A DNA stretch of 64,000 bases, taken from NCBI GenBank assembly GCA_018712805.1, contig DVGI01000020.1, forward strand, positions 51,725 through 115,724. Direction: 5' to 3'. This DNA comes from Candidatus Fimenecus excrementavium. Its GTDB lineage: Bacteria; Bacillota; Clostridia; Oscillospirales; Acutalibacteraceae. The translations under genes were made by a program, and so were the position numbers. Under the pieces are notes generated by a model. It had not been told where the DNA came from and did no database searches. It saw only the letters and a list, made by a program, of their open reading frames with translations. Shown piece after piece: positions 3,211 to 63,152 of this stretch. Every line of letters begins with the position of its first letter. Positions within the stretch are counted from its first letter, which is position 1.

Positions 3211-3470
3211 TGCTCAAGGCCGTTTCCGGGTTGACAAAGAAAAAGATTGATGTCACTGACTGCTCGAATTCGGTGTGTCCGGCGACAGTACCCGCAAAAA
3301 TATTCGTGCAGCTGCTTCCGGGTCAAGGAAGTAAAAGATTGATTTCACTAACTGCTCGAATTCGGCGTGTCCGGCGACAGTACCCGCAAAAATATTCGTG
3401 CAGCTGCTTCCGGGTCAAGAAAGCAAAAGATTGATTTCACTAACTGCTCGAATTCGGTGTGTCCGGCGAC
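3211..3470. repeat. Tandem direct repeat, 92-bp unit, about 2.5 copies plus a degenerate partial copy
   Basis: Units start at 3241, 3333 and 3425 (AAAAGATTGAT[G/T]TCACT...). Copies 1 and 2 differ at about 5 positions by hand alignment. Copy 3 is truncated near 3470 and supplies the last codons and stop of the kinase gene. 3211-3240 resembles a unit end. Confidence 0.85.
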
Positions 3471-5881
3471 ACCGGCGACACGGATTCGGCGATGTCGCCG
3501 TCGTAAGCCAACGGGAGTTTCACCGTCGCTTTGAACAGGTCGCCGTCAATTTGCAGTTCCAGCGCGCCGCCTTGCAGTGTGCAAAGGTCTTTTGCAATCG
3601 AAAGCCCGAGCCCGCTCCCCTCTTTAGTTCGCGACTGGTCCCCGCGCACAAAACGCTGGGTCAGTTCTTCGGGCGGAATGTTCAGCGCCTCGGCGGACAC
3701 GTTTTTCACCGAGAAAATGCCCTCGCCGTTTTCTTCGCGCACGTCCACGTAAACGCGCGTGCCCTCCAGCGAATATTTGCGGGCATTGTTTAACAGATTG
3801 TCAAAGATGCGCCACGTTTTTTGGCTGTCGGCAAAAATCACCGGCGGCGTTTCAGGCGTATTTAACACGATTTCGAGTCGGCGTTCAGCAAAACTGTCTT
3901 CCATTTCGCCGACGGCCTGCGTCGCAAGCTCGCAAAGGTTAACGCGGATTTTGTTAAGCGTAACCGCGCCGGAGGAAACCTTGGAGGCTTCGACTAAATC
4001 TTCAATCAGACGTTTGAGCCGGCCGGATTTCTCGTCGAGCACGCGGATATATTTCTGGGCGGTCTCGTCTTGGATGTCGCATTTTTCGAGCAAATCCACA
4101 TAGGAAATAATCGAAGTCAGCGGCGTTTTCAAATCGTGCGAGACGTTGGTAATCAGCTCGGTTTTCATACGCTCGCCTTTGAGCGCCTCTTCAATCGCCG
4201 CGGCTTTGGACTCCTGCGCGGCAGTGAAATTCTCGGCAAGCGAGCGCAGGGGCTGCGGCATGCTTTGCGTATCCAAAATCTGTGCGGGTTCACCATCATG
4301 CGCTTTTTGGGCGGCGGTTATGATTTTGTCGAGCGAAACGACGTAACGCCAAACCAAAATCAGGCTGATGACATTAAACAAAATCAATAAGAACAGCGCA
4401 ACGCCGATGCGTTCAAACGTAAACAGCGCAAGCACCGCGTTCACGGCAAGATAGAAGAGCGTAAACCAACGTACTTTTTTGGAAAGGGAGGTCAGCTTTG
4501 CAAGGTAGATGCGGCGAAGCGCGCCGAAAAACTTTTTGTTGCCCTTGTGCCACGCGATAAACAGTTTTGCGAGCAGGGTGGAGCGGAAATACGGCCGCCC
4601 CGCCTTATAGCCTTTTGCGACGGAGTTTATCCACTCCATGGCGATTGCATAAACCACAGCCGAAAGCAGAGCGCCGAGCGCGGGGAAGAAAAATTCATCA
4701 GTATAAGAAGAAATCTGATCCGCGCAGGCAACGACCGCCCCCGTGCCGGCAGCGATACCGAGGCCCCAGCTTAACACGAAGTGCAAATCGTTCGGCATTT
4801 TGTCGCCGGGCGCAAGGCAAATGCCCTCCCGTCCGCGCACATGGCCGGTCACAAGCACCAAATACAGCGAAATTACCGCGGCGGCAATCAGCAAGACGAC
4901 CGTTGCAAGACAGCGCGTGCGAATTTGCGACGCGCCGGTCAGGAATTCCTCCTGCGCATCGGCAAAGCTGTCACCGCGTTCGAGCGGCATGGGAATGTCG
5001 AAATAAACATCGTAACCTTTGTCGCTGAAGCGGCTGTTCAACAAATCAGCAAAGGGAATCGCGTAGTTTCCTTGATAAAATGTGTCAATGTTCAGCGAGT
5101 CGGAGTAAAGCGTCAAGCCTTTGTCACAGGTGTAGCCGAAATACCAGTCGGGGCTGTTTAAATATTCTCTAAAGTTTTCTGCCGTGACTTCTGCCGGCAT
5201 ATTGGTAATGACTTCGCCGGTGTCTGTATTATGCAAATAATATTGCACATTTTTCAGTTTGCTGAGCGCCTGCTGCGCCTGCAACACCGAGGACTCAAAC
5301 TCGCGGCGATAATTGGCAAGCGTGCCGGTATAGATTTCTTCGACCGCCTGCCGCGCGTGACTTTCCGAATCTTCGGAATACAGCGTAACTTCCGCCGTTG
5401 GCAGGCTGTTCAGCGGGATTGTCACGATAAATCCGCTGGGGGTCTCGTCTGCTGCATTTGCGCCGTTCAGGGCGTAAGCCGCCGTGGTTTCCTGTGCGTC
5501 GCCGTTACCATCTTCCACGGCTTCTGCGTTGTCGGCGTATTGCTGCCGAATGTCCGCTTTAAACCTTTCAAACTGTTCGACCACATAATCCTGCTCCTCT
5601 TCCAGCGTGTCATAAGCCGGCAGGGCGTCCCGCTCCCAGTTGTTGTCAATATAGGCTTTGCTCAAATCACTCAGGGTAGAGGCAACCTGCTGCTCAAACA
5701 TGGTTGAATCTGTAAAAGATAAATTGTCTCCACTGACGCCCTGCTGCCAGCCGTAGCTGTCGAGGGTCTGCACGACCAGCTGGGTATACCATGCCGCGGA
5801 AAAGACGCAGGCAAGCGCCACCAGGAATGCGACGGTTTTTAAGCCGTAGCTGTATTTAATACTTTTCAATTTTGTATCCAA
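3440..5881 (-). CDS. Sensor histidine kinase with a large N-terminal extracytoplasmic region
   Basis: 813 aa. HisKA H-box ELITNVSHDLKTPLTSIISY; HATPase NLLNNARKYS...GSGLGLSIAKDL; TM segments near residues 17-37 and about 330-530. TTG start overlaps the regulator gene 3' end. Confidence 0.9.
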   Translation of the reverse strand: MDTKLKSIKYSYGLKTVAFLVALACVFSAAWYTQLVVQTLDSYGWQQGVSGDNLSFTDSTMFEQQVASTLSDLSKAYIDNNWERDALPAYDTLEEEQDYVVEQFERFKADIRQQYADNAEAVEDGNGDAQETTAAYALNGANAADETPSGFIVTIPLNSLPTAEVTLYSEDSESHARQAVEEIYTGTLANYRREFESSVLQAQQALSKLKNVQYYLHNTDTGEVITNMPAEVTAENFREYLNSPDWYFGYTCDKGLTLYSDSLNIDTFYQGNYAIPFADLLNSRFSDKGYDVYFDIPMPLERGDSFADAQEEFLTGASQIRTRCLATVVLLIAAAVISLYLVLVTGHVRGREGICLAPGDKMPNDLHFVLSWGLGIAAGTGAVVACADQISSYTDEFFFPALGALLSAVVYAIAMEWINSVAKGYKAGRPYFRSTLLAKLFIAWHKGNKKFFGALRRIYLAKLTSLSKKVRWFTLFYLAVNAVLALFTFERIGVALFLLILFNVISLILVWRYVVSLDKIITAAQKAHDGEPAQILDTQSMPQPLRSLAENFTAAQESKAAAIEEALKGERMKTELITNVSHDLKTPLTSIISYVDLLEKCDIQDETAQKYIRVLDEKSGRLKRLIEDLVEASKVSSGAVTLNKIRVNLCELATQAVGEMEDSFAERRLEIVLNTPETPPVIFADSQKTWRIFDNLLNNARKYSLEGTRVYVDVREENGEGIFSVKNVSAEALNIPPEELTQRFVRGDQSRTKEGSGLGLSIAKDLCTLQGGALELQIDGDLFKATVKLPLAYDGDIAESVSPVSPDTPNSSS

Positions 5882-6545
5882 TGCCCCACACCACTTTCAA
5901 ATACTTCGGTTCTTTCGGGTTGATTTCGATTTTCTCACGGATACGGCGGATATGCACCGTCACGGTTTTTTCGGTGGAAAAAGCGGGCTCGTTCCACACG
6001 GCTTCATAAATTTGGTTGGTGGAAAGGACGCGGCCCATGTTGCGCATGAGCAATTCCAAAATGCCGTATTCCGTTGCAGTCAGGCGAACCGGCTCGCCGT
6101 CAAGGGTGACTTCTTTCGAATCGGGGTCAAGTGTCAGCCCGCCGGTGGTCAGGACGTTTTCGCGGACCTCCATGCTCCCGAGCGAAACATAGCGGCGAAT
6201 TTGCGATTTGACGCGCGCCATAAGCTCCAACGGATTAAACGGTTTGGTGACGTAATCGTCCGCGCCGAACGAAAGGCCGGTGATTTTGTCGGTATCTTCA
6301 CTTTTTGCGGAAAGCAAAATAATCGGGATATTTTTGGTTTCACGCAATTTGAGCGTTGCGTTCAGGCCGTCAAGGCCGGGCATCATGATATCTAATATAA
6401 TGCAATGGATTTCGTTTTCCTGGGCGGCTTTGAGGGCTTCTTCGCCGTTTTCGGCTTTGATGACCTCGTAACCCTCCAAGTGGAGATAAATCTCCAAAGA
6501 ATCCAAAATTGCTTTGTCGTCGTCACAAATTAAAACGGTATACAT
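5856..6545 (-). CDS. OmpR/PhoB-family response regulator
   Basis: 229 aa from MYTVLICDDDKAILDSLEIYL... (receiver), with a winged-helix C-terminus ...TVHIRRIREKIE...YLKVVWGIGYKIE. GAGGGG SD precedes ATG 6545. The upstream 48 codons of the track ORF are rejected. Confidence 0.92.
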   Translation of the reverse strand: MYTVLICDDDKAILDSLEIYLHLEGYEVIKAENGEEALKAAQENEIHCIILDIMMPGLDGLNATLKLRETKNIPIILLSAKSEDTDKITGLSFGADDYVTKPFNPLELMARVKSQIRRYVSLGSMEVRENVLTTGGLTLDPDSKEVTLDGEPVRLTATEYGILELLMRNMGRVLSTNQIYEAVWNEPAFSTEKTVTVHIRRIREKIEINPKEPKYLKVVWGIGYKIEKY

Positions 6546-6971: not shown

Positions 6972-7006
6972 AAAAAAACAAGGCAGAGTTTTTACACTCT
7001 GCCTTG
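6972..7006 (-). terminator. Rho-independent terminator closing the surface-protein/micro-ORF operon
   Basis: 11-bp perfect stem (CAAGGCAGAGT/ACTCTGCCTTG) with a 6-nt loop, followed on the minus strand by T7. Confidence 0.85.
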
Positions 7007-7061
7007 CTTGTGTTTTGTTAATAAACCCGGTGTGTTTGCACCGATGTCAAAATATCACAGG

Positions 7062-7184
7062 TTAGATTTCCACCCAACCGTCGTCGCCGCCTTCAACAGG
7101 ACCGGTGCCGACAGAGATTGTGATAATATCTTCAACATCATAGAGTGAAACATCGAAATCGGGCGTTGTGTACACTTGTTTCAT
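7062..7184 (-). CDS. Unannotated acidic micro-protein, 40 aa (paralog of 7225-7359)
   Basis: MKQVYTTPDFDVSLYDVEDIITISVGTGPVEGGDDGWVEI. Strong AAGGAGAA SD about 9 nt upstream of the ATG. Below the ORF-track size cutoff. Shares a motif with the neighbouring micro-ORF despite synonymous nucleotide differences. The terminator follows 55 nt downstream. Confidence 0.6.
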   Translation of the reverse strand: MKQVYTTPDFDVSLYDVEDIITISVGTGPVEGGDDGWVEI

Positions 7185-7224
7185 CTGAAGTGTTCTCCTT
7201 TCTTAATTTACCAATTATTTTAAA

Positions 7225-7359
7225 TTACCAAATAATGACTGCATCGCCGCTTCCGTCGTCCGGCAATGACGGTACAACGGAAATATCAGCAATTTTCTCG
7301 TCTTGTTCAAAACGTATAAATTCAAGGTCCGGCGGTGCATATTGCATTTTTGGCTGCAT
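7225..7359 (-). CDS. Unannotated acidic micro-protein, 44 aa (or 40 aa from the ATG at 7347)
   Basis: MQPKMQYAPPDLEFIRFEQDEKIADISVVPSLPDDGSGDAVIIW. Starts 23 nt after the stop of gene 7383-8570; SD is weak (AGGTAG). Shares Y-x-x-P-D-[LF]...[FY]-[ED]...I-S-V...D-D-G with the 40-aa paralog. Confidence 0.5.
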   Translation of the reverse strand: MQPKMQYAPPDLEFIRFEQDEKIADISVVPSLPDDGSGDAVIIW

Positions 7360-7382
7360 TGTCACTACCTACTTACTTTCAA

Positions 7383-8570
7383 TTATCCAGCAAAGGGATA
7401 TGCAGCAAGGTAAGAATCAACAATAGTCTGATAATTGGTATCCAGGAGAGCGGTCTGCGCTGCATCATAGAATGCATACTGCGTAGCACCTTCAGCATCT
7501 GTATACTCAACATATGCAATGTAAGTTGCATCCGAACGGGTTTCAGCGCTTGTAATCTGGATGATTGCGCCGAAGTAAGCATCGGAAGAATCGTCAGCTT
7601 TCTGGACATAAGTGGTGGTCGCTACATCGTAGCCGGCAGCCGAGCCACCCTTAGCAACGGACTTTGCAGTTTCAAGGTCGAAACCGGCGGTGCCTTTGTA
7701 AGCAACGAAGCCGAGCTTAGTGAGCGCGTTGTTGCCGCCAGCAGCGGTGTTCGCGAAGTAGGTATCCCAGTCAGCGTCGGTAATCACAGAGGTTACACGG
7801 AACTGGAATGCATCTTCAACGGTGGTCGGGCTGTTCGGAGTCATCTTGACTTCAGCCTTGGACTTCGCAACGACAGGGCCTGCGGGCTCGTCAGAAACTA
7901 CAGTAACCTTAGCCATAGACTGCGTCAGGTCGTATGCAGTATTTTGATAGCGTGTGCCACCTGCAGGGGACATATAAGAAACATTTTTCAAATAGGTTGC
8001 TTCATGGTTACCAACCCAGATTTCTTCACCGGGCTGAACATCGTCGGAAACAACCATTTTGAATGTGCACATGGGGGTGTTTTCATCTTCAGGAGTCCAG
8101 CCCTGACCAGGTTTATTGATAACACCTAAACCAGTGTCCACAACACCATTCATCAAAATAGCGCTTGTGTAATATGCCTGCTCTTCTTCAGTAAGGTTCG
8201 CTGCCAACTGTGCAATAGGATAAGCAAAGTTAACAGTCGAAGTCTGTTTCATGAAGTTTGCGCAACCATTAACATATTCTCTAAATTCTGTGTTCGTTGT
8301 GGAAACAGGATTCACTTGCTTGTTGTTGTACACGAGGGTCGTCATCCAAGGGCCAAAATCCCCTGTGTAGCTACCACCCGTTTTAACATAAATAGAATAA
8401 GTGATCGTGTCTCCCGCTTTTACTTCTGTTTTATCAGCTTTAACAATGATACCCAAATCACCTGAGTTCAAGGAAGGGGTATAAGTAAGAGCTTGGGCTG
8501 GTAAAACAAATAATGAACACAGCATTACAAGTGCTATAACTAATGATAGTACTTTTTTTGCTTTTTTCAT
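7383..8570 (-). CDS. Secreted protein with an N-terminal cohesin-like beta domain, function unknown
   Basis: 395 aa. Signal peptide MKKAKKVLSLVIALVMLCSLFVLPAQA; IIVKADKTEVKAGDTITYSIYVKT... resembles a cohesin-type sandwich. GGAGG SD. No dockerin, LPXTG or SLH motif seen. Confidence 0.75.
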   Translation of the reverse strand: MKKAKKVLSLVIALVMLCSLFVLPAQALTYTPSLNSGDLGIIVKADKTEVKAGDTITYSIYVKTGGSYTGDFGPWMTTLVYNNKQVNPVSTTNTEFREYVNGCANFMKQTSTVNFAYPIAQLAANLTEEEQAYYTSAILMNGVVDTGLGVINKPGQGWTPEDENTPMCTFKMVVSDDVQPGEEIWVGNHEATYLKNVSYMSPAGGTRYQNTAYDLTQSMAKVTVVSDEPAGPVVAKSKAEVKMTPNSPTTVEDAFQFRVTSVITDADWDTYFANTAAGGNNALTKLGFVAYKGTAGFDLETAKSVAKGGSAAGYDVATTTYVQKADDSSDAYFGAIIQITSAETRSDATYIAYVEYTDAEGATQYAFYDAAQTALLDTNYQTIVDSYLAAYPFAG

Positions 8571-8588
8571 TATTCTTTTCCTCCTGTT

Positions 8589-9686
8589 TTATTGAGTTAC
8601 ACCAAGTGCAGCCGCGACAATTTCCGCAAACTGTGCTTGAGTAGTAAAGTCCATATAAGAAGCAACACCGTCAATGTTCGAAACATCAATACCGTCGATA
8701 AACATATCACCATTGACATCGGAAGCCATAGCTGCTACTGAACCATCACCAGCCATGAAGCTGAAATCCATGTACGATGCAACACCGTCAACATTTGAAA
8801 CATCGATGCCGTCGACAAATCCGTCACCGTTTACATCTCCAAACATGACATAGTAATAGGTTTCTACAACATCGCCATTTGCATTCAACAACTCAATTTT
8901 AGCGCCAGTGCTGAAAGCACTATATGCTTCATTAGCCGTTACACGAATGGAGCCAGCTGGCGTTGTAAGGTTATTCAAAATGTCCGCGTCAGAGAAGACA
9001 TTATCAATACCATAGACAAAGCCATTGCCGTTTGCACAGTTGGAAACTCTGTCGATGATAATGCCAGCAGCTGAACCGGTTTCAGAAAGCTGAAGTTCGG
9101 GAGCAGCACCGCTGCCGATAGTAACCGCCGTATTGGTCAGAGAGAATTCCTGGCCGACAGCCGTTACGGTTGCGGTATTGACATCTGCGGTAGAATAGGC
9201 GCCCAAATACAGCTTGCCGCCGATATTGGTAGCCGTTTTCTGATCTTCCGCTTTGGTCGCAATCGGGGACGCCTGGGCGTTCGCTTTTGCGGTCAGCTGG
9301 AAGGTAAACAAAGTCGTGTTGCTAAGCTGTTTCGCTGTGCCGCCGGCTTTCGGGATGAAAGCGACCATGACACAACCAGCTTCTGTCGTGTTGATTGCAG
9401 TGTCTGTATAGCCAGCGCCGTAAAGGTCGGTGCTGGGGGTAACAGAATCGGGAACGAGGTCAAACGCCGCCGCGTCGTAATAAACCGGAACCGAAGTCGC
9501 CGCTGCATAATAATCCGTTGTAGCAGCAACAGTCACGGTAACGGTCGCCCCGACTTCGACTTGCGTCTCACTCGCGGAAACTGTGATTGTCGCGTTTTGA
9601 TCCGCCGCAAAAGCGCCGAACGCAAACAATCCCGCAATCATAACAACAGCCAAAACGACGCTAATCGCTTTTTTTGCTTTTGTCAT
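8589..9686 (-). CDS. Secreted cohesin-like plus dockerin-like adaptor protein
   Basis: 365 aa. Signal peptide ...GLFAFGAFA. Cohesin-like ITVSASETQVEVGATVTVTVAATTD...VPVYYDAAAFDLV...LFTFQLTAKA. The C-terminus carries two near-identical Ca-loop repeats, DVNGDGFVDGIDVSNVDGVASYMDF and DVNGDMFIDGIDVSNIDGVASYMDF. Confidence 0.75.
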   Translation of the reverse strand: MTKAKKAISVVLAVVMIAGLFAFGAFAADQNATITVSASETQVEVGATVTVTVAATTDYYAAATSVPVYYDAAAFDLVPDSVTPSTDLYGAGYTDTAINTTEAGCVMVAFIPKAGGTAKQLSNTTLFTFQLTAKANAQASPIATKAEDQKTATNIGGKLYLGAYSTADVNTATVTAVGQEFSLTNTAVTIGSGAAPELQLSETGSAAGIIIDRVSNCANGNGFVYGIDNVFSDADILNNLTTPAGSIRVTANEAYSAFSTGAKIELLNANGDVVETYYYVMFGDVNGDGFVDGIDVSNVDGVASYMDFSFMAGDGSVAAMASDVNGDMFIDGIDVSNIDGVASYMDFTTQAQFAEIVAAALGVTQ

Positions 9687-9715
9687 AATTTTTCCTCCTT
9701 ATATTCTTCCCATAT

Positions 9716-9744
9716 AATATACCTGCAAAACGGGAAAAAGTCAA
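9716..9744 (-). promoter_or_regulatory. Sigma-A-type promoter candidate for 8589-9686 and downstream genes
   Basis: Minus strand: TTGACT, 17 nt, TATATT, about 30 nt upstream of the ATG at 9686. Confidence 0.5.
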
Positions 9745-9904
9745 CAAGTAACTTTTATTTGGAAAAAACTTTCTGTTTGCAAAAATCGACAATCAGCTAT
9801 CACTCTAACCGCCTTTTTTGCAAAAAAAGTGGTGAAACAGAAGTTTTCCGCCGTTTATTTTGCATACTACATTTCGCAGAAATGTCTGCGATGGAAATTC
9901 ATGC

Positions 9905-9933
9905 GTGCCGCCGGCCGGAGAGACCGGCGGCAC
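9905..9933. other. GC-rich 10-bp hairpin between the giant gene and the next gene (partial terminator?)
   Basis: GTGCCGCCGG-9 nt-CCGGCGGCAC. The T-run lies on the plus-strand side (ATTTTTC); the minus-strand side has only GCATGAATTT, so termination of the minus-strand transcript is uncertain. Confidence 0.4.
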
Positions 9934-9969
9934 ATTTTTCATTGGGATTTTTCAGAACTTTTGCTTTGG

Positions 9970-12900
9970 TTATCTAACCTGGTCGATGGTAGCAGTGCCC
10001 GCGATAGCGTCTTTCACGAGTGTGTAGTCCGCCACAGCGACCTGTGCGTCGGCGTTGGTGTCAGCCGCGAGGCCGTAAGCACCGGTAAGCGCCTGGACAT
10101 CAGCCAAGCCAAGGTCAAGAACCGCCGCGTCGAACGCGTCAACCGCGCCGTCGCCGTTCACATCACCGTAAATAACCACGGTGTAGGTAGCAACCGTCTG
10201 GCCGCCAAGCTCAGCAACATTAACTTTCACGGTTGCGCCGGTGCCGTAATAACCGGCAGCGGAAGCAACGCTTTCAAGCGTTGCAGTGTAGCCTGCGGGG
10301 GCAGAAGCTTTGACGAGCGCAAGCAGGTCTTCGCCGGAAGCGATGGTTGCAGGAACAAGACCATCAATGATGAGTTCGGTCTGCTCAACGTTGGTGCTGT
10401 TATCCGGGACGTCTTCGTCCGGAACAACCTGGATTGCGCAGGTGAACTGGTTGATAGCATCCTGGAGCGTCGCGACCTGAGAAGCAAGTTCAGCGTCGGT
10501 CGTGGAGCTCATAACGCGATCCGAAGCCACATAGGCTTTTGCGGAATTCACGTAGAGGTTCTGGATGTCGCCGTTTTCGTCTTCATATTCATAGCCGAGT
10601 GCGGCAACAAGGTTTGCCCAAGCGTCAGCAGCTTCGCCTTCCTTCACGGTGTAAAGGTCGGTGTTCTGGAACATGACGTCTGCCTGAGCGATTAAGGATT
10701 CAAGCTGCATGTAAGCGCCGTTGTCTTTCGCGGAATCTTCTTTCGCCATCAACTGATTCTGTGTGATCATCAGGTTGTATTTCGCGTTAAAGACTTCAGA
10801 CTGCAATGCATCGGGTGCGCTGTTGACCTCGTTTGCAGTTGCAAGCGCTGCACTGTAAGCCGCCCAAGAATCTGTGGAGAAGTTGCCTTCTTCATAGCCC
10901 TGTGCGTTTGCAGCAGCAATTTCTTTTGCAAGGAACTGTTTTTCAGCAGTCTTTGCAATCAGGAACTGTTTGTAGTAACCAAGCAAAGCTGCCTGATTTG
11001 CATTGTCCAAAGCGGTATAAGTCGGATATACATACTCTGCCAAAGCAGCTTTATAAGCATCCTTATCAGCTTCGGACGGCTGAACCAAGGTCTTTTCGAT
11101 AGCATCTTTCAAAGTGCTATTAGCTGCTGCCGCAGAAATTTCAAGGATTTCTGCTTCAGAAAGGTCGCATCCTTCAATATAGGCATCCGGAGCCTCGGGA
11201 GCAGTGTACTCTTGAATTCTATTTCTTGTAGCAGTTCTTTCGTCCTGATACTCAAAATATTCATGAAGTCTGTAGTCCTGATAGTTAATTTCTTTATCAA
11301 GATTTTCAGCCTGTGCAAGAGCTTCTTCCAAAACATCAACAGTTGCTGCGGTCGAGGACTTCTTGAGCAGGTTTTCGACTGCTGTTTCAAGCTGTTCTAC
11401 CGCTGCATCCAAGTTTTGCTGGGTGTAAACAGAAGAGAAGCTGGAGGTCATCATAGGAGCTTTCAAATAGTACGCCGCATTCTGCATCGCAGCAAGATAT
11501 GCACTCCACTCCGCATCGGCGGATTCATCAAAGTAAACTCTCTGATAACCAGCATCTACTGTCGAATCAAACAAGGCCTGCAATTCACCAGTATTAGCAT
11601 ACCACAGGCGATCAAAGTTGACATTGAATTTACCGTCCGGGTTAAAGATGAATGTAGACTGTGCGTAGAAATTACCCAAAGCAATGCTGTCGCCCGACTG
11701 CAAGCCAGAGAGATCAGCACCAGTGTATGCTGCGGGTTTGATAACAACGACAGACTGTTTGTCAACGCCAGTGAATCGAGCGCCAGTGTCGCGGACATAG
11801 GTGCCATCGAAGCCGGTATAGCTACCGTTCTTGCCGCCGCTTCCGCCCAAGCTGGATGTACCTGTGAAGGTAACAGACAAGTTGTTAATAGTGTTCGGGA
11901 TACTCTTAATAGAAGTAACAACCGGATTCAACGGTGAACCGTTAACTGAAGTTTCAGCGCCTGAACCCGTGAATGTACCATTCATGTCGGAAAGCTGTGC
12001 TGTCGCATAGTTAAACTCATAAACGGACTGTTGTGTACCAAGTGTGGTACCGTCTTTAAAGGTGTAGTGGTACTGCACTTCAACTGTAACAGCACCTTCG
12101 CCAGAAGCCGTGTAGGCATAGCTTGCAGATGCGCCCGGAGCGACTGTTTGATTCCCTGAGAAAGACACGGAACCATTTGTTGCAACGATATTATCAATTA
12201 CAATGTTATAAGGCTGGTCATAAGACCCATCTGAGCGCTTCAACAGCATGCCGGAAGAAAGGTTGGTAATCTTAACGGTCTCAGCCGCACCCATATAAAT
12301 GTAATCATATCCGTTTGCATTTGTAAACGAGATATCAGGTGCTGCTAATTTCTGTGCATCTGTCGTCCAACCAACGAAGAAGTTCAACAGCGGCATTACA
12401 CCATCAAGGAGACCATTCTGGTACGCTGTAAAGAGCTTCGCCAAAAGATTTTCAGCAAAGTTAGCAATGTTTGTCTGGTTAAACACGCTGTCAATGCTTG
12501 TAATCACGGAAGAATCTAACAAGTCGCCACCAGCTGTTTTCTTGAGAAGCCCATTCAGAAGATCGCGAACGACCTGAACAACGGCAGTAAATGTGCCGGT
12601 GGTTCTCAAGACACTGTTTTCGGGAATGTTAAACATATTGACCGGTTTAACGATGTCCAAATTCAGCAAAGAAACAACAAAGTTGTCTCTCAAAGCAGTC
12701 TCAAGCCAAGTCTTGCCATCAGCAGGTGTAACATTAAGAATCTGCTCAACCGGAAGCAAGCTGCGGATGATTGCGTCAAGCTTCACCCACGGATCCTGTG
12801 CGGTTGCAAGGTCGATGGTGAAGGAACTGGTATCAACAAAGTTCTCCATCTTCCAAGTCCACTCATAGTCATTGCAAAGAGCCCAGTCAACGACCCAGTC

Positions 12901-14967
12901 AATCGTCTCTTCCCACTTCTGCGGGTTAGCTTCGAACTCGCCGAGTTCATAAGTTTTGGATGCAGCAAATTTATAGCCGACATCCGTATCCTCGCCGAGG
13001 TCAGCAAGGTTTTTCAGATAAGACATACCAATGTCCACGCCGATGGTCAGGCAAACATCCAGCCAGTAGCTGTTGTCTTTGTCCAGCAAGATCTTGTTGT
13101 TGTAGTCGGAATAAATCAGTGCATCATAGTTGTAGGTCGGGACAAACTGTGTTGCAAGTTCACGAAGAACTGCAGCCAACAGAGCGCCGACATTTTGACC
13201 CTTCAGATTTTCAGCCGACGGAAGGTTGAGCTGAGGCATCAAGAACTCAAGAAGTTTCGCCGCAATACCGCAGACAATTTCCTGGTTGGTGGAGCTCGGA
13301 TCCATCATCAACTGATAATAACCTGTGTTGTAGTTTTCGCCGAAAATGGATTCGGGGCTGTAGTTAACAACATAGCGAGCCGCTTTCTTCGCATTTTCAA
13401 GAAGGTTGGAGTTGTCACCGTCAACCCAAGCAATTGCAGAAACAACTTCAGGGGTGAAGACGGTTTCAATTACCTTACCGAAGAAATCATTTGCAGCCTG
13501 CAGAACGGTGGTATAACCAGCCGCAGAAGCAGTCTTGCCGTCAGCTGCTGCAGGAATGAACTCATCGATGAAATCATCTGTGATCTTATAATCCCAGTTG
13601 ATGATATCAAAATAAGGATTGGTGTTGGAAAGGTCAGAAGAGTAAATCTGATCTTCAAAACGATAATAGTGGTTACCGTTGATTACAGCGTAATCAGACC
13701 ACTCCCAAAGGTATTCGCCCTGTTCCTGGGTGAAGAAAGCGTTGCCGGAATCCGGAAGTGCTGTAACTTCTTCGCTGCCGACTTCGCCGACATATGTAAA
13801 GGAAGCACCGAACCATTGTGCAAGAGCTTTCTTAACAGAACCGTTCAGAACGACAGGCGCCATCTCCTGGAATACATAAGGCGCAAACTTGTAAAGCAGA
13901 GTAGCTGCAGAATCTGTCTCAAGATCCAAAGTTGCACTGCCAGTGCTCAGAGCGTTTGCGAAAGACGGAAGCCAGTAGCTGTCGTTCTCATAATACTTCA
14001 GATTGTCGCCTTCAGCAGTTTTGAACACATATTCACCACTGCCGACCGGCTCTTCGGTCTTATAGTATTTCGCTTCTTCAGCCGTGTATTCATAAGTTAC
14101 GGGATCCAGCACATAGAAGGTGTAATACTCACCGGTTGAATCCTGACCCTTTTCATACGCGTAACGCAAATAATCGTCCTGTGTGGGAAGCGTGTGGTTG
14201 CTGATGCATACGCCTTCAGCATTCTCTTTATAAGAAGTGTTGCTTTGAGGCTTTGTGAACAAAGACTTCACGAAGCTGTTCAAAACCGCCTGCACACCGC
14301 CGTTGCCCTGCGTGCTCGCCAAAGCACCCATCTGCGTCAGGTCGTCGTCTTTTCTTTCAAGCAGCGGGAAGATGAGGCCTTTGATCAGGCCGGGTATATC
14401 GCCGATATAGCCGCTAACAGCACTAAGATCGACAAAGCTGTTTGCAACGCCGAGATCCAGCTTGCCGGTGCGAAGAACATTACCGACAACACCTGCATTG
14501 TTTTTCAGAACCTCAAGCAGTTCATAAATAATCGTCAGCTGCTCGGTGTTTTCACGCGTCATGCCAGACTGCCAGCTTTTCAAATTAACATCACCGATAA
14601 TACCGACCATCCATTTCAAACCGGAAATCAAGCCATTGTTCAAAATAGATTGCACATTGTCTACCGTTCCGCACAATGCATTAACTGAAGTCAAGTTAAT
14701 GTTCAGCGTGCCAAGAACGCTCAAATCGATGGGGTCCATTACGATGTTGGCATCACCAAGCACCTGATCGAGATAATCGAACAGGATGGATACACGCTCT
14801 TCTGTAGACAGTCTGGTGACTGCGCCGTATGGGCTGTAAGCTTCCAGTGCCTGCAGGTTTTCAACAGTTTTATATTCTGTTTTCGCCGCAGAAGCCAGCA
14901 CGGTCATGCTCGAGAAAAGCATCACAATTGCCAAGATGACGCTCAACAATTTGGTTGACTTTTTCAT
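9970..14967 (-). CDS. Giant secreted dockerin-bearing protein, 1665 aa; the N-terminal ~1000 aa has no recognisable domain
   Basis: Signal peptide MKKSTKLLSVILAIVMLFSSMTVLASA. Several three-helix FIVAR-like segments (e.g. FSTDSWAAYSAALATANEVNSAP, DAEWSAYLAAMQNAAYYL). C-terminal dockerin-like YGDVNGDGAVDAFDAAVLDL...ADTNADAQVAVADYTLVKDAI. AGGAGG SD. Confidence 0.85.
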   Translation of the reverse strand: MKKSTKLLSVILAIVMLFSSMTVLASAAKTEYKTVENLQALEAYSPYGAVTRLSTEERVSILFDYLDQVLGDANIVMDPIDLSVLGTLNINLTSVNALCGTVDNVQSILNNGLISGLKWMVGIIGDVNLKSWQSGMTRENTEQLTIIYELLEVLKNNAGVVGNVLRTGKLDLGVANSFVDLSAVSGYIGDIPGLIKGLIFPLLERKDDDLTQMGALASTQGNGGVQAVLNSFVKSLFTKPQSNTSYKENAEGVCISNHTLPTQDDYLRYAYEKGQDSTGEYYTFYVLDPVTYEYTAEEAKYYKTEEPVGSGEYVFKTAEGDNLKYYENDSYWLPSFANALSTGSATLDLETDSAATLLYKFAPYVFQEMAPVVLNGSVKKALAQWFGASFTYVGEVGSEEVTALPDSGNAFFTQEQGEYLWEWSDYAVINGNHYYRFEDQIYSSDLSNTNPYFDIINWDYKITDDFIDEFIPAAADGKTASAAGYTTVLQAANDFFGKVIETVFTPEVVSAIAWVDGDNSNLLENAKKAARYVVNYSPESIFGENYNTGYYQLMMDPSSTNQEIVCGIAAKLLEFLMPQLNLPSAENLKGQNVGALLAAVLRELATQFVPTYNYDALIYSDYNNKILLDKDNSYWLDVCLTIGVDIGMSYLKNLADLGEDTDVGYKFAASKTYELGEFEANPQKWEETIDWVVDWALCNDYEWTWKMENFVDTSSFTIDLATAQDPWVKLDAIIRSLLPVEQILNVTPADGKTWLETALRDNFVVSLLNLDIVKPVNMFNIPENSVLRTTGTFTAVVQVVRDLLNGLLKKTAGGDLLDSSVITSIDSVFNQTNIANFAENLLAKLFTAYQNGLLDGVMPLLNFFVGWTTDAQKLAAPDISFTNANGYDYIYMGAAETVKITNLSSGMLLKRSDGSYDQPYNIVIDNIVATNGSVSFSGNQTVAPGASASYAYTASGEGAVTVEVQYHYTFKDGTTLGTQQSVYEFNYATAQLSDMNGTFTGSGAETSVNGSPLNPVVTSIKSIPNTINNLSVTFTGTSSLGGSGGKNGSYTGFDGTYVRDTGARFTGVDKQSVVVIKPAAYTGADLSGLQSGDSIALGNFYAQSTFIFNPDGKFNVNFDRLWYANTGELQALFDSTVDAGYQRVYFDESADAEWSAYLAAMQNAAYYLKAPMMTSSFSSVYTQQNLDAAVEQLETAVENLLKKSSTAATVDVLEEALAQAENLDKEINYQDYRLHEYFEYQDERTATRNRIQEYTAPEAPDAYIEGCDLSEAEILEISAAAANSTLKDAIEKTLVQPSEADKDAYKAALAEYVYPTYTALDNANQAALLGYYKQFLIAKTAEKQFLAKEIAAANAQGYEEGNFSTDSWAAYSAALATANEVNSAPDALQSEVFNAKYNLMITQNQLMAKEDSAKDNGAYMQLESLIAQADVMFQNTDLYTVKEGEAADAWANLVAALGYEYEDENGDIQNLYVNSAKAYVASDRVMSSTTDAELASQVATLQDAINQFTCAIQVVPDEDVPDNSTNVEQTELIIDGLVPATIASGEDLLALVKASAPAGYTATLESVASAAGYYGTGATVKVNVAELGGQTVATYTVVIYGDVNGDGAVDAFDAAVLDLGLADVQALTGAYGLAADTNADAQVAVADYTLVKDAIAGTATIDQVR

Positions 14968-15323
14968 GTTTTGTTTTCCTCCTATTGAAATTTACATTGT
15001 AAAAACAATGCATCCGCCCCGCCTTCTCTTTGCCGGCGCGGGACTGAAACCGGCATTGTTGGGAGCCCGATTGCTTCCTCCTCTGACCAACCGCAGAATT
15101 TGCGGAAGGACTGGCAAAAGCGCTCGTCTTTACTCGGAGGCCCTCCACCTAAACTCCGCTTTCTTTGCAAAGTCGGCGGAAGACAGATGATACACACCCG
15201 AGCGTAAACCTTAGGATGTGTATCAAAATGGGTTGGAACTCGTCCCCCGCGTTTTTTAGGGGACAGTTGCCTCTTAAAAAAGAAGACAATTCGCCCCAAT
15301 ACACCATTCCTATGGTTAGGAAA

Positions 15324-15352
15324 ATTATAGAATTTTTATAAAAAAAAGTCAA
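15324..15352 (-). promoter_or_regulatory. Canonical sigma-A promoter upstream of the giant gene
   Basis: Minus strand: TTGACT, 17 nt, TATAAT. The predicted TSS near 15317 leaves a 5' UTR of about 350 nt. Confidence 0.6.
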
Positions 15353-15577: not shown

Positions 15578-15617
15578 ATATAGAAAACGGCAGACAGCTT
15601 CAACGCTGCCTGCCGTT
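15578..15617 (-). terminator. Rho-independent terminator after the lipoprotein gene 15640-16377
   Basis: 12-bp stem AACGGCAGGCAG/CTGTCTGCCGTT (one G-T pair), followed on the minus strand by TTTCTATATTTT. Confidence 0.6.
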
Positions 15618-15639: not shown

Positions 15640-16377
15640 TTATTTGGCTTCGGTTTCCTTGGGAAGATCTTTCATAATTAAATTCGCGTCAATAATAGCT
15701 GAAATATCATAAGAGGTGTCCTGCTTGCCATCGCCGCAAATATAATCAATTTTAAATACATGCCCCTGATAAATATAATAGAATATCTGCGAATAGAAAA
15801 GCCGGGTGCCGTCGCTTTGTGTAAGAGAAAATGTCATAATTCTGCAGTCCAGCGACTGTTGGGTTAATGTTTTTTCAGCATATTCAAAAGAAGCTGTGCT
15901 GTTTTCGTAAGCCTTTTCCATCTGCTGCGCAACTTCCTGAGCCTGCTGCTTTTTCTCGGCAAAAATGCTGTCAATGGTAGCCGTGGCCGGAGCAGCGCCA
16001 AGATCTGTAATCTGCACATAGCTCTTGTCGTTTCCTTCTTTGAAAGCGCGGTTCATTTCATCAATGGTCCAGCCGTCCGGATAAGTAATCTTATATTCCG
16101 GCGTTTCCAGTGTGGTGCCAGAAGAGATTCTGTCCGGGAAAGTCACCGCGTTAGTCTGCGGCTCTCCGTTTGCGTCCTCCACATATTTTCCGTTTTCATC
16201 GGTCACATATACAACAAGCTCGCCATTATCATTAACAACCGTGTTTCCCTCTTCATCGGTCACAAGCGGATACTCATAGCCCTCTTTCGTGACAATGGTC
16301 GGTCCTTTGCCGCAGGCGACAAACAAAAGCGTCAGCGCCAAAACAAGCGCCGCAACAGCGATAATCTTTTTTTGCAT
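15640..16377 (-). CDS. Lipoprotein of unknown function with TDENG-type linker repeats
   Basis: 245 aa. Lipobox LLFVAC after MQKKIIAVAALVLALT; VTDEEGNTVVNDNGELVVYVTDENGKYVEDANGEP; GGAGG SD. Confidence 0.8.
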   Translation of the reverse strand: MQKKIIAVAALVLALTLLFVACGKGPTIVTKEGYEYPLVTDEEGNTVVNDNGELVVYVTDENGKYVEDANGEPQTNAVTFPDRISSGTTLETPEYKITYPDGWTIDEMNRAFKEGNDKSYVQITDLGAAPATATIDSIFAEKKQQAQEVAQQMEKAYENSTASFEYAEKTLTQQSLDCRIMTFSLTQSDGTRLFYSQIFYYIYQGHVFKIDYICGDGKQDTSYDISAIIDANLIMKDLPKETEAK

Positions 16378-16441: not shown

Positions 16442-16470
16442 ATTATAGAGTTTTTGCAGAAAAAAGTCAA
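16442..16470 (-). promoter_or_regulatory. Canonical sigma-A promoter for the lipoprotein gene (same cassette as 15324-15352)
   Basis: Minus strand: TTGACT, 17 nt, TATAAT. The surrounding 32 nt is about 27/32 identical to 15321-15352. Confidence 0.6.
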
Positions 16471-35229: not shown

Positions 35230-35618
35230 AACGCGCTCCTTTCCGTCCAAATTCGGCTCTCGGCCGTTTTCTCTTTCGACAGCTAAAGCATAACACACAT
35301 TACCTTGCAATGCAATATACTTTATATTATTTAATAATTTCTTAATAATTGTTTATTTCCGCGCTCTACTGCCCGGACGGCGTTCGGGTTTCATACGGCT
35401 GAAATTTTCGGATTGTATTCCGACAGAGTATTTCTTTTTTCGGCCTGCCCCTATATAATAAGGGCAAACAAAAACCCTTTCTTTTTTTTGAGAAATGCTG
35501 TGCCGCGGTGCTTTCGGCGATACGTAACGTTTCCGCCCTTGTACGGGACTGCATTTCTCGCGATATGTTCTTTCTCCTGCCCCCCTCTTGTGCCGCTTTT
35601 TTGCGGCGCAACCCCTTC

Positions 35619-35789
35619 TTAGCCCCCGCCGAAAAGCGGGGGCTTACTTTTTTTATGCCCGAAACGTAAAAGCACTTGTTCCCGCTTCGGCGAAAAGCCA
35701 AGGTAAATGACTGGTTTTGCCTGTTGCCGAATATGGCGCAGATACTGCTGTCCCCAAACGCCGACGCGGGTAATAAATTCATCTTTCAA
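35619..35789 (-). pseudogene. Possible truncated TnpV-like (transposon-associated) gene remnant, 56 codons
   Basis: GGAGG SD lies 7 nt before the TTG. (M)KDEFITRVGVWGQQYLRHIRQQAKPVIY... recalls the IGxWGQxxLRYLK motif of TnpV proteins (from memory). The reading frame ends inside the hairpin at 35621-35644. Confidence 0.3.
35621..35654 (+). terminator. Strong orphan hairpin plus T-run on the plus strand (no plus-strand gene upstream)
   Basis: AGCCCCCGC-6 nt-GCGGGGGCT, then TAC and T7. A second small hairpin GCCGC-T6-GCGGC lies at about 35592-35607. Confidence 0.45.
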
Positions 35790-35870
35790 AGCAAAATCCT
35801 CCTTTGCAAGTACATTGTACCGCAACGGAGGAAATAACAAAAATGTGCGATTTGAATTTACAGAAACATA

Positions 35871-35899
35871 TTGACTAATCACGGTTTTTGAACTATAAT
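35871..35899 (+). promoter_or_regulatory. Canonical sigma-A promoter at the start of the low-GC cassette
   Basis: TTGACT, 17 nt, TATAAT on the plus strand. The first SD-preceded ORF begins about 320 nt downstream. Confidence 0.55.
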
Positions 35900-36096
35900 A
35901 CATTTGTCAAGTGATAATGTGTCCTTTAGTATTGAAGATTCGTAGAATGAGAGTACGAATTAGATTCGGAAGGGTTTGGGCATTTGACAAACAAATGAGT
36001 AAATCATCGAAACTATTGATTCCTTACAAATTCTCATTATGGAATCAAGAAAGCAGTTGTGTTGGTTGACTGTAGTTGTCCCCCTGTTGTTTCGTT

Positions 36097-36207
36097 GCTT
36101 TACACCACATTACGAACCGATAGTATTTCATCGGTCTTGTTTTGTTGCGTGTAAAGCAGTATATCTGTAATCGTCGTCCACGCACAATGCAAGTGCGTGG
36201 ATTTTTT
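36097..36207 (+). promoter_or_regulatory. Structured leader: nested hairpin followed by a terminator-like hairpin immediately upstream of the SD
   Basis: Outer 9-bp stem GCTTTACAC (36097-36105) / GTGTAAAGC (36149-36157) encloses ACCGAT-8 nt-ATCGGT plus CTTGTTTTGTT. Then comes TCCACGCAC-7 nt-GTGCGTGGA plus T6 (36177-36207). Confidence 0.45.
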
Positions 36208-36228
36208 CGGTTCAGAAAGGAGAAAAAG

Positions 36229-36456
36229 ATGAGCGGTAAAAAAGTATCGGGGAAGACTCATACCAAAGAGCAACTGGACAGTTGGGCAAACCAGAACAAT
36301 CCAAACAATAAGGCGTATCGGTCAAATGCTAATAATCACGCTAACCAATTGAATCCAAATCGCAAAACACATCAGCAGATTCACAACTCTAACCGTAGGC
36401 ATAAAGATCAAATCTGGCCCGAATGGGCACCCGACTACCCGGAATATGATGATTAA
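36229..36456 (+). CDS. Small basic N/H/Q-rich protein, 75 aa, unknown function
   Basis: AAAGGAG SD; MSGKKVSGKTHTKEQLDSWANQNNPNNKAYRSNANNHANQLNPNRKTHQQIHNSNRRHKDQIWPEWAPDYPEYDD. Low GC: the row at 36301 is 37%. Confidence 0.6.
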   Translation: MSGKKVSGKTHTKEQLDSWANQNNPNNKAYRSNANNHANQLNPNRKTHQQIHNSNRRHKDQIWPEWAPDYPEYDD

Positions 36457-36470
36457 AAAGGAGAATCAAA

Positions 36471-36653
36471 ATGAGCAAACATTTCTTTGATTTTGAAGAT
36501 GGCGACTTTACCCATACGATATCGGATAATATGGCTATTGATTCCGATTGTGATCTTCTGATGAGACTGGGCGATAACATGGCGATGGATATGGATACTG
36601 GTGATATTCATATCATATCATCGTGGTCTAACGATGACGAAGACGACGATTAA
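36471..36653 (+). CDS. Small strongly acidic protein, 60 aa, unknown function
   Basis: AAAGGAGAA SD; MSKHFFDFEDGDFTHTISDNMAIDSDCDLLMRLGDNMAMDMDTGDIHIISSWSNDDEDDD, with the internal repeat DNMA[IM]D. Confidence 0.6.
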   Translation: MSKHFFDFEDGDFTHTISDNMAIDSDCDLLMRLGDNMAMDMDTGDIHIISSWSNDDEDDD

Positions 36654-36675
36654 ATAGAATCATACCTCAATGCAA

Positions 36676-36712
36676 AAATCCCTCTGCCGGTTTCCCGACA
36701 GAGGGATTTTTT
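36676..36712. terminator. Bidirectional rho-independent terminator
   Basis: AAATCCCTCTG-12 nt-CAGAGGGATTT, flanked by A5 and T6. Confidence 0.8.
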
Positions 36713-36843
36713 AGATATAAATTGCTACCTTTACATCTTTCCAACTTGATGTCTTGAAGTGGTGCACATCCGAAACTGTTTCCAGATACTTATGAGCATA
36801 CGCTTCGTCAATCGTCAAATCGGCAACTTTGAGAAAGGAACAA

Positions 36844-62025: not shown

Positions 62026-62087
62026 AGTGTCCTCCGAATCTGCGCCGAGCGCAAAATGCTTGTAAATTTAGGTCGGCATCTAAAGGT

Positions 62088-62116
62088 ATAATACCTTAAA
62101 TCGTTATGCTTGTCAA
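62088..62116 (-). promoter_or_regulatory. Sigma-A promoter candidate for the TPR/DUF4037 pair
   Basis: Minus strand: TTGACA, 17 nt, TATTAT, about 60 nt upstream of the ATG at 62025. Confidence 0.6.
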
Positions 62117-62199
62117 CAGTAATAGGAACTATTACTGATTATAGAGTAGGGGCACGAACAGCCAGCCAAACTGCTTTTTGGAAAGGTTGTATTATGGCA

Positions 62200-62400
62200 G
62201 TATATCGTCGTTTCGCCCTTGATAACCGCATAAAACCAAGACCGTGCGGGCGGGGTGAAAACGGAACCGCCTTCCCGCGCGGGTAGTCGGGAAGACGGGA
62301 TTTCCCCGGACAAGCCGCGGAGACAGCAACCGAAAAACGGGCATTGCTCTGTTTTGCCGCACAGGATATACTTTGGCATATGCTCCGGGAAAAAACAGGG
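62200..62400. other. GC-rich, hairpin-dense non-coding block inside an AT-rich intergenic region (unclassified)
   Basis: Examples: GCGGGCGG...CCGCCTTCCCGC, and CGGGATTTCCCCG. The overlapping track ORFs have no SD and junk-like composition. Confidence 0.2.
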
Positions 62401-63077: not shown

Positions 63078-63152
63078 TTTTTTCATCTCGCAAAACGGAC
63101 GCAAAAGCAAAGAAAAGCACCCGCCAATATAGACGGGTGTCCGTAAAACAGT

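Follow-up and report, generated by a model that had tools for sequence, protein, structure and literature searches.

In Ruminococcus flavefaciens, the role of the adaptor protein ScaC and that of the X module-dockerin dyad (X-Doc) in its interaction with ScaE have been described (PMC5934362), and this type III cohesin-dockerin system is the nearest described counterpart of the locus presented here. The locus is a gene cassette found in a 64,000-nucleotide stretch of contig DVGI01000020.1 of Candidatus Fimenecus excrementavium (the window), and it encodes a 1665-aa protein (the giant), a 365-aa and a 395-aa protein (365 and 395), a 245-aa lipoprotein (lipo245) and two small peptides. ScaC is a small secreted adaptor with one cohesin and one dockerin, and 365 resembles it in this respect. 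In both systems the X module precedes the dockerin in the X-Doc dyads (ScaB and CttA in R. flavefaciens, which bind the cell-surface cohesin ScaE or the autonomous cohesin CohG), and a single-cohesin protein is encoded beside its partners in one cluster. The N-terminal domain of 395 folds near CohG (4n2o/4wkz) and the ScaC cohesin (5lxv). Unlike R. flavefaciens, the present cassette has no enzymes or carbohydrate-binding modules (CBMs), and its cargo is the giant with its unmatched head. The terminal cohesin protein lacks a sortase signal and bears instead an unmatched domain of 165 aa, a lipoprotein and two small peptides are encoded in the cluster, and the dockerin/cohesin pair is hypervariable within species. 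As to hallmarks of amylosomes and cellulosomes, no Pfam match to the S-layer homology (SLH) domain and no LPXTG motif was found in the three large proteins.

Non-cellulosomal cohesin/FIVAR-dockerin complexes were reportedly described by Adams et al. in 2008 for the glycoside-hydrolase toxins NagH and NagJ of Clostridium perfringens. These share with our cassette a cohesin-dockerin joint outside plant-fibre degradation in a gut Clostridium and FIVAR-type helical modules before the dockerin, which here stay below the Pfam threshold; in addition, the C. perfringens GH84C cohesin-FN3 construct 2w1n is the top fold match of the 395 model. Unlike the cassette products, the C. perfringens proteins are enzymes and have no adaptor tier, and they are not known to belong to an allelic cassette system. 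Surface features of Clostridioides difficile are recombination hot spots and its S-layer is a phage receptor (PMC7677006 and PMC8809339). The S-layer cassette of its slpA region is like the present locus in having deeply divergent alleles at a fixed site and recombination between close strains. The S-layer proteins themselves are unrelated, since they are anchored by SLH-like CWB2 modules and not by cohesin-dockerin pairing, and unlike in C. difficile, sub-genic modules are exchanged here with breakpoints at domain boundaries, including what appears to be a matched pair across two genes.

We somewhat favor the reading that the cassette encodes a resident, lineage-restricted surface assembly of uncultured gut Clostridia, built by cohesin-dockerin pairing in the order giant, 365, 395 and without a recognisable enzyme. 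The known part is the cohesin-dockerin assembly with a ScaC-like adaptor; the new part is the uncharacterised cargo, the accessory lipoprotein and peptide genes, and the within-species diversification of a dockerin/cohesin pair. Literature searches for Fimenecus together with cohesin or dockerin, and for hypervariable dockerin loci, found nothing specific.

Modules of the cassette proteins

The genes and modules of the cassette are listed below in window coordinates. The three large open reading frames (ORFs) are placed exactly where a first-pass annotation made from the DNA alone had put them; the lipoprotein gene, the two peptide genes of the operon, the X modules and the within-species hypervariability had been missed by it.

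15640-16377, minus strand: lipo245, 245-aa lipoprotein gene, the first gene of the cassette, identified as a conserved upstream homologue
9970-14967, minus strand: giant gene, ORF of 1665 aa
14887-14967, minus strand: giant signal peptide, residues 1-27, cleavage after LASA, the sole hydrophobic segment
12358-14886, minus strand: giant head, residues 28-870, mostly alpha-helical with beta inserts
11593-12357, minus strand: two immunoglobulin (Ig)-like beta-sandwich domains of the giant, residues ~871-1125, from the secondary structure of the model
10378-11592, minus strand: helical stalk of the giant, residues ~1126-1530, with FIVAR-like repeats (sub-threshold Pfam matches, helices of the model)
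9973-10377, minus strand: X module (residues ~1531-1597) and dockerin (1598-1665) of the giant (Dockerin_1, profile homology)
8589-9686, minus strand: 365-aa gene, ORF
9102-9605, minus strand: cohesin of 365, residues 28-195 (Pfam Cohesin, profile search)
8592-9101, minus strand: X module (residues 196-278) and dockerin (279-365) of 365, hypervariable (Dockerin_1 family, profile search)
7383-8570, minus strand: 395-aa gene, ORF
7887-8489, minus strand: N-terminal cohesin-fold domain of 395, residues 28-228 (AlphaFold model and Foldseek)
7386-7886, minus strand: C-terminal beta-rich domain of 395, residues 229-395 (model, allele comparison)
7225-7359, minus strand: acidic peptide gene, 44 aa from the ATG at 7359, product ending in DAVIIW, called in related contigs
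7062-7184, minus strand: acidic peptide gene pep40, 40 aa, conserved across species

A single hydrophobic segment at the N-terminus, together with a cleavage site of AxA type, is present in each large protein, so the Sec signal peptides assigned earlier hold for all three. The earlier failure to see an enzyme, CBM, SLH domain or LPXTG motif in them was repeated in our Pfam and motif scans. A scan of four locus proteins against NCBIfam gave no match, and no catalytic or CBM family was found in the cassette proteins by Pfam or in the remote homologues of the giant.

The cohesin-like start and the dockerin end which had been read in 365 were both confirmed. Residues 28-200 match Pfam Cohesin (PF00963) with 29.1 bits (E 1.3e-6, cutoff 24.1), the same family is matched by 8 of 10 orthologous domains, and a profile of this domain finds 3l8q (E 2.8e-5) and 5g5d (E 2.7e-4), both structures of type II cohesins. 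For the dockerin the confirmation came from the family profile: the window allele is just under the Dockerin_1 cutoff of 22.9 bits (19.4 bits, E 1.3e-3), while 21 of the 26 family members match Dockerin_1, the best at E 6.5e-13, and a search of PDB with the family profile gave dockerins at E 1e-6 to 1e-11 (best 9e-11). Its Ca-binding loops form two nearly identical repeats, DVNGDGFVDGID and DVNGDMFIDGID. Judged from its sequence, 365 is a ScaC-like adaptor with a signal peptide, one cohesin, an X module and a C-terminal dockerin.

The dockerin end of the giant, also proposed in the first-pass annotation, is above the Dockerin_1 (PF00404) gathering cutoff of 22.9 both for the whole protein (31.2 bits) and for the domain alone (35.5 bits). 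Its best PDB match is 4uyp_B (E 3.3e-4), and the tandem Ca-binding loop repeats of the form D-x-[ND]-x-D ... D are DVNGDGAVDAFD and DTNADAQVAVAD. Small homologous beta modules, the X modules, precede both dockerins and form X-Doc dyads with them. The X-Doc of the giant is homologous to that of 365 (34% identity, E 5e-9), and every giant homologue with a complete C-terminus matches the X-Doc part of the 365 profile.

The AlphaFold model of giant residues 28-1200 (predicted local distance difference test, pLDDT, 83.9) has a mostly helical head of about 850 residues followed by the two Ig-like domains. Residues 28-870 have no Pfam match, and Foldseek searches of PDB and BFVD gave nothing credible for them (template modelling score, TM, <= 0.10). 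Of the model, only the Ig-like part has fold neighbours, and these are generic tandem-Ig ones (usher chaperones, transglutaminase barrels, intimin). In a collection of 1.84 billion proteins, matches to the head family amount to just 106 cluster representatives; the remote head homologues end in FIVAR/dockerin or bear FN3 repeats, and none has an enzyme domain. The giant as a whole is not the orphan which it had been called, since 3779 homologues were scored and it has thousands of metagenomic relatives, all of the homologues being unnamed or "hypothetical protein". On the stalk, FIVAR (PF07554) matches with 17.6-19.8 bits, under the gathering cutoff of 29.2, and one remote giant homologue (P0429) passes it with 47.2 bits (E 3.5e-12). 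By sequence, the stalk is at best FIVAR-like.

For 395, the AlphaFold model (pLDDT 88.5) consists of the N-terminal domain and a second beta-rich domain after it. Against many cohesin structures the model gives a Foldseek probability of 1.0 and target-normalised TM of 0.57-0.71, in agreement with the nine-stranded jelly-roll fold of cohesins; neighbours of the N-terminal domain include R. flavefaciens CohG 4n2o (TM 0.62) and 4wkz, the ScaC cohesin 5lxv and type II cohesins, together with the OlpA/OlpC cohesins of C. thermocellum (TM 0.70). The earlier label "cohesin-like" is therefore right for the fold and is not borne out by cohesin hidden Markov models (HMMs). The C-terminal domain has no Pfam or PDB match in sequence and profile searches. 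The possibility that 395 is a double cohesin was rejected, as hhalign gives the C-terminal domain a probability of 0.4% against the cohesin profile at the sequence level.

Allelic mosaicism and the proposed assembly

The giant was found in 17 GTDB species, all of them as metagenome-assembled genomes (MAGs), under the labels Candidatus Fimenecus, Oscillospiraceae, Ruminococcaceae UBA6434, Eubacteriales and, for one contig, "Phocaeicola". This last contig (L011, JAHHQU010000083.1) holds a full Firmicute-type cassette in a MAG labelled Phocaeicola sp. and is probably a binning contaminant. The order of the cassette is lipoprotein, giant, optionally 365, then 395 and the two small peptides. Wherever the contig reaches far enough, a lipo245 homologue lies immediately upstream of the giant and a 395-family gene downstream of it, and the 365-type adaptor is present in about half of the cassette loci. 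Searching metagenomes with the 40-aa peptide gave 80 loci, mostly on human-gut contigs, and in 78 of them the 365 gene, followed by the 395 gene, stands directly upstream of pep40.

Two rearranged forms of the cassette bear on which modules pair. In the adaptor-less loci L008, L010, L016 and L017, the giant ends in X-Doc and the 395-family gene follows directly; in L015, which is also adaptor-less, the 395-family gene after the giant is cut by the contig end. In L012 (9641-19764) and L013 (10001-20142), a unit of X-Doc plus 395 occurs twice, once on the giant and once on 365, with X-Docs that are 94-96% identical between giant and 365 and two 395 copies that are 96-100% identical. The nearly identical copies show that the unit was duplicated as a block, and the linker AAPELQL marks the junction.

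Nine contigs of the same or sister species were used for strain comparison. In the flanks, the products are highly similar (ProRS, the proS product, 97-99%, ribosomal proteins 98-100%, response regulator 97-100% identity), and in the cassette identity is 41-100% for lipo245, 66-97% for the giant, 62-87% for 365 and 35-71% for 395. Among the strains whose ProRS is 98-99%, ribosomal proteins 99-100% and response regulator 100% identical, the ranges are 41-100% for lipo245, 66-97% for the giant, 65-87% for 365 and 35-66% for 395. In sharply bounded blocks, whose edges match domain limits, DNA identity is 40-60% instead of 92-100%, and these blocks assort independently. The variable blocks in the window are as follows.

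~16300-15500: lipoprotein body
14900-14300: giant residues ~20-220
12700-10900: giant residues ~755-1355
9100-7900: X-Doc of 365 and N-cohesin of 395
7900-7300: C-terminal domain of 395, two allele classes

Within species, allelic modules of the locus recombine at domain boundaries and give it a mosaic structure. In the giant, head residues 201-850 are 78-94% identical between strains, residues ~51-200 are a variable sub-block (52-98%), and the X-Doc is 89-100% identical between conspecific strains. The Ig-like domains are the core of the hypervariable block of residues ~755-1355 and are 25-37% identical between conspecific strains, except in L029 (99%), which carries the allele of the window; DNA identity is 43-62% over window positions 12300-11100, and the edges of the divergent block lie near 12700 and 10900. 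Between conspecific alleles of 365, the cohesin is 93-99% identical, the X module 24-88% and the dockerin 20-57%. The N-terminal domain of 395 is the most variable module of all (12-41%), and its C-terminal domain falls into two allele classes, whose members are 93-98% identical among themselves and 47-49% identical to the other class. Loci L018 and L020 have identical 365 and 395 N-terminal domains and C-terminal domains of different classes. A diversity-generating retroelement was rejected as the source of this variation, because whole domains differ at 10-40% identity, unlike targeted adenine mutagenesis; no reverse transcriptase was noted in the locus, though no formal search for one was made.

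The metagenome loci and the earlier loci together gave 88 unique haplotypes, for which module types were called at 60% identity. Within the same background, median identity is 26% for the 395 N-cohesin and 49% for the 365 dockerin. These two vary together: the Spearman rho between their identities is 0.85 overall and 0.90 among the 2231 pairs whose 365 cohesins are at least 90% identical. The corresponding rho of the 395 N-cohesin is 0.30 with the C-terminal domain of the same gene and 0.04 with the 365 cohesin. The table of 19 types of 395 N-cohesin by 16 types of 365 dockerin is nearly block-diagonal (adjusted mutual information, AMI, 0.76). In a single species background with 66 haplotypes, AMI between dockerin and N-cohesin is 0.67 against a permutation maximum of 0.15, and AMI between the C-terminal and N-terminal domains of 395 is 0. 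For the giant X-Doc and the 365 cohesin, both with a median identity of 98% across haplotypes amid variable sequence on all sides, the types coincide (AMI 0.99). The X-Doc/395 N-cohesin allele of the window is nearer to those of L012 and L013, whose 365 cohesin is only 51-53% identical, than to most conspecific alleles. Because cassette types cross species in this way, the alleles are therefore old or have moved between species by recombination.

The adaptor-less gene order, the duplication in L012/L013 and the haplotype co-inheritance together point to X-Doc and the 395 N-cohesin as partners, and the giant X-Doc and the 365 cohesin would form a second, conserved joint, because both are about 98% identical and their types coincide. 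We infer that the cohesin and the dockerin of 365 differ in specificity and bridge two other components, since its cohesin is conserved like the giant dockerin and its dockerin is variable like the 395 N-cohesin. Binding of the giant dockerin to the 395 C-terminal domain was considered and rejected, since the giant dockerins of L018 and L020 are identical and their 395 C-terminal domains are 49% identical.

In the assembly which we propose, the conserved giant dockerin would bind the conserved 365 cohesin, and the hypervariable X-dockerin of 365 would bind the equally hypervariable 395 N-cohesin, the two being exchanged as a matched pair. In adaptor-less species, the X-dockerin of the giant would bind the 395 cohesin directly. 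The C-terminal domain of 395, a candidate cell-envelope anchor, or else the lipoprotein would attach the complex to the envelope. By analogy with the series of enzyme, adaptor and anchoring scaffoldin in R. flavefaciens, 395 would be the base and the giant head the tip. The earlier suggestion of a self-contained cohesin-dockerin assembly is thus favored by the synteny in 17 species, the dockerin/N-cohesin co-inheritance and the block duplication, with the binding itself standing as a prediction.

With lower confidence, we suppose that the assembly displays the head as an adhesin or ligand-binding organelle, and that frequency-dependent selection by phage, antibody or strain discrimination maintains the diversity; the latter is suggested because deep allelic types at a fixed locus resemble the C. 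difficile S-layer cassette. Equally tentative is a contact between the lipoprotein and head residues ~50-200, hinted at by the co-variation of the lipo245 C-terminal domain with giant residues 51-200 (14368-14817; rho 0.84 in 9 strains). The 600 bp of promoter, leader and signal-peptide DNA between lipo245 and the variable segment of the head are 81-100% identical. Because this spacer stays conserved, the data suggest two co-adapted segments and not a single recombination tract.

Weighing of the explanations

Several observations weigh against the proposed assembly. The N-terminal domain of 395 has no cohesin HMM match at E <= 1, and its C-terminal domain, the supposed anchor, matches no known wall-binding family in Pfam or among PDB sequences. 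The lipoprotein could be the base of the assembly; in this opposite polarity it would tie the head to the membrane, with 365 and 395 placed distally. In L012/L013 the 365 cohesin is without an obvious partner in the locus, and the cohesins here may also serve dockerins encoded elsewhere. Carried further, this leads to an unlikely alternative, in which the three proteins are parts of a genome-wide network of cellulosome or amylosome type, with partners encoded elsewhere and no mutual binding. In architecture 365 agrees with ScaC of R. flavefaciens, an adaptor between other proteins (PMC5934362), and the DNA inspected covers 64 kb with two dockerins in it. Against such a network, gene order is kept across 17 species, the X-Doc plus 395 unit was duplicated as a block and dockerin types map almost one-to-one onto N-cohesin types, and neither the cassette nor the remote homologues contain a carbohydrate-active enzyme, a CBM or an anchoring module. 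The co-inheritance itself must be read with caution, because the correlation values are coarse at 10-25% identity, where modules are effectively unalignable, and because the 365 dockerin and 395 N-cohesin are adjacent on the DNA, so that it is partly linkage. If it were linkage entirely, the modules would be independent exposed antigenic or adhesive domains whose folds do not serve mutual binding. The gap of ~20-40 bp, which allows a single tract to replace both, the failed HMM search and the occurrence of dockerin type 14 with four N-cohesin types agree with this; but the N- and C-terminal domains of 395 recombine freely within one gene (the rho of 0.30, the AMI of 0, and L018 against L020) and the dockerin and N-cohesin do not, and the 395 gene always follows X-Doc, whichever protein bears it. 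Because the equally adjacent C-terminal domain recombines freely from the N-cohesin, we think that matched pairs are selected and that linkage alone is quite an unlikely explanation.

Two other readings concern the nature of the giant and the origin of the region. Dockerin-bearing proteins, as known from cellulosomes, are usually enzymes, and invariant charged and aromatic residues are numerous in the giant head; together with the co-variation of lipo245 and giant residues 51-200 over a conserved spacer, this would suit a secreted polymorphic toxin or lytic enzyme with the lipoprotein as its immunity protein or inhibitor, merely retained on the producer by cohesin-dockerin binding. We regard this as very unlikely, as searches with Pfam, NCBIfam, PDB sequences and folds gave no toxin, hydrolase or other catalytic family, the variable segment is small and N-terminal while the bulk of the head is conserved, the co-variation sample is 9 strains, and the lipoprotein gene is upstream with its own terminator. 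The first-pass annotation had also taken the low GC content as consistent with horizontal acquisition. The GC values of 60-base rows which it quoted are correct (38.3% at 8401, 60.0% at 20401), yet both are extremes; the lower GC is real but modest, 47.1% in the region against 52.2% in the rest of the window. GC at third codon positions (GC3) is 0.43-0.51 in four locus genes against 0.57-0.72 in nearly all other ORFs (about 0.64), and some cassette types are common to several species. However, the conserved inner modules have genome-typical GC, 55-60% for the 365 cohesin (55.4%) and the giant dockerin (60.1%), with 51.8% in the 395 C-terminal domain, and the drop is confined to the hypervariable modules (42.8-45.4%; 365 X-Doc 43.9%, 395 N-terminal domain 42.8%), which accounts for the low-GC signal of the locus. 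The cassette lies at the same chromosomal position, between proS and the S10 ribosomal operon, in all relatives close enough to compare. No integrase, transposase or other mobility gene, tRNA or repeat boundary was found at the locus, and there is no phage or plasmid signature, IMG/VR scans with the 395 and giant families having given no relatives. A horizontally acquired genomic island is thus extremely improbable, and the fixed site together with GC confined to variable modules points to allelic replacement by recombination in a resident locus.

A more far-reaching version of the surface assembly is doubtful in our view, namely a strain-specific organelle with an 850-residue head of new fold on a stalk, ~19 orthogonal dockerin/cohesin "barcodes", a co-adapted lipoprotein and two co-transcribed peptides. 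The barcodes would enforce self-only assembly or permit escape from phage or antibody, and the peptides may signal or be post-translationally modified.

If the surface assembly of giant, 365 and 395 is as we propose, cohesin-dockerin assembly would no longer be confined to enzyme complexes but would include a non-enzymatic surface structure that varies between strains, in abundant uncultured human-gut Clostridia. The ~16-19 co-inherited dockerin/cohesin types on a constant scaffold would be a natural test panel for how binding specificity is encoded and a possible source of orthogonal connectors for protein engineering. The hypervariable locus would be usable for strain typing and for probing selection on commensal surfaces by phage, IgA and competition. 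The conserved 850-residue domain, the 165-residue domain and the lipoprotein domain, all without known relatives, are targets for structural and functional study.

Accessory genes, transcription units and neighbors

The lipobox of lipo245 is LFVAC, and a lipobox is kept across the lipoprotein homologues compared. The protein has a conserved tether (residues 23-82) and a variable C-terminal domain. Searches of lipo245 against Pfam and PDB, profile searches included, gave no match; a PsbP-like relation (E 1.4e-3) was obtained in just 1 of 13 members and was judged insignificant.

Both peptide genes lie within the operon, with the 395 gene on one side and the terminator on the other. The 44-aa and 40-aa peptides are paralogues. 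Conservation of the former was seen in L001, L005 and L012, and it has no Pfam or NCBIfam match. The 40-aa peptide has the motif Y-x-x-P-[DE]-F ... T-[IL]-S ... GG-D-x-G-W and is conserved even in species with a giant of just 41-48% identity (L003, L004, L005, L009, L012, L017); Y5, P8 and W37 are invariant in the small peptides. The elements Y-x-x-P-[DE]-[FL] and T-[IL]-S resemble the leader of lasso peptides and other ribosomally synthesized and post-translationally modified peptides (RiPPs), with a spacing two residues beyond the canonical one; the canonical lasso-type leader motif is YxxPxL ... T at -2. No RiPP maturation genes, such as those for a cyclase or a protease/RRE, were found in the operon or among ten larger ORFs of the window sampled with Pfam.

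Promoters and terminators were taken from consensus scans of the window DNA, and they are listed here with the two-component system.

16442-16470, minus strand: promoter-like site before lipo245 (consensus scan)
15586-15617, minus strand: terminator after lipo245 (consensus scan)
15324-15352, minus strand: sigma-70-like promoter of the giant gene, TTGACT-17-TATAAT, 11/12 matches
9716-9744, minus strand: promoter-like site on the upstream side of the 365-aa gene, 10/12 matches
6976-7009, minus strand: intrinsic-terminator-like hairpin at the operon end, 14-bp stem followed by a T run
5856-6545, minus strand: OmpR-type response regulator (Pfam)
3440-5881, minus strand: histidine kinase, ectodomain at residues ~38-318 (Pfam, transmembrane layout)

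The region singled out in the first-pass annotation, 6972-15352, matches the promoter at 15352-15324 and the terminator at 7009-6976, which suggests that it is one operon from the giant promoter to the terminator. These limits omit lipo245, which has its own promoter-like site and terminator and is a cassette member by comparative data. A leader of ~350 nt (14968-15323) extends from the promoter-like site to the start codon of the giant with 40% GC; it has no Rfam family and is possibly a regulatory RNA. Even where divergent blocks lie on both sides, strains share 81-100% identity in the leader DNA (15500-14900). An Rfam scan of the whole window gave no family and no tRNA.

On one side of the cassette are proS, an acyl carrier protein gene and a phosphoglucomutase gene, and on the other side the OmpR-type response regulator/histidine kinase pair and the S10 ribosomal operon, with SpoIIE farther on. 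The genes around the cassette are a housekeeping set of a spore-forming Firmicute. The kinase does have the large extracytoplasmic domain noted before, ~280 residues by transmembrane layout. The proposal that this pair regulates the cassette was not upheld, since the adjacency occurs only in conspecific strains and the sister lineage L001, and the pair is absent after the cassette in more distant species; the link to the cassette is weak. The kinase ectodomain (residues ~40-330) is 58-99% identical between conspecific strains, and the cytoplasmic part is 84-98% and the response regulator 97-100% identical.

Two other low-GC stretches (40-45%) are present at 35300-36800 and 62000-64000 of the window. 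They contain small ORFs only and are unrelated to the cassette; among these ORFs are one of 104 aa rich in Asn/His (36142-36456), one of 60 aa that is very acidic (36471-36653) and one of 144 aa that is NUDIX-like (63474-63908).

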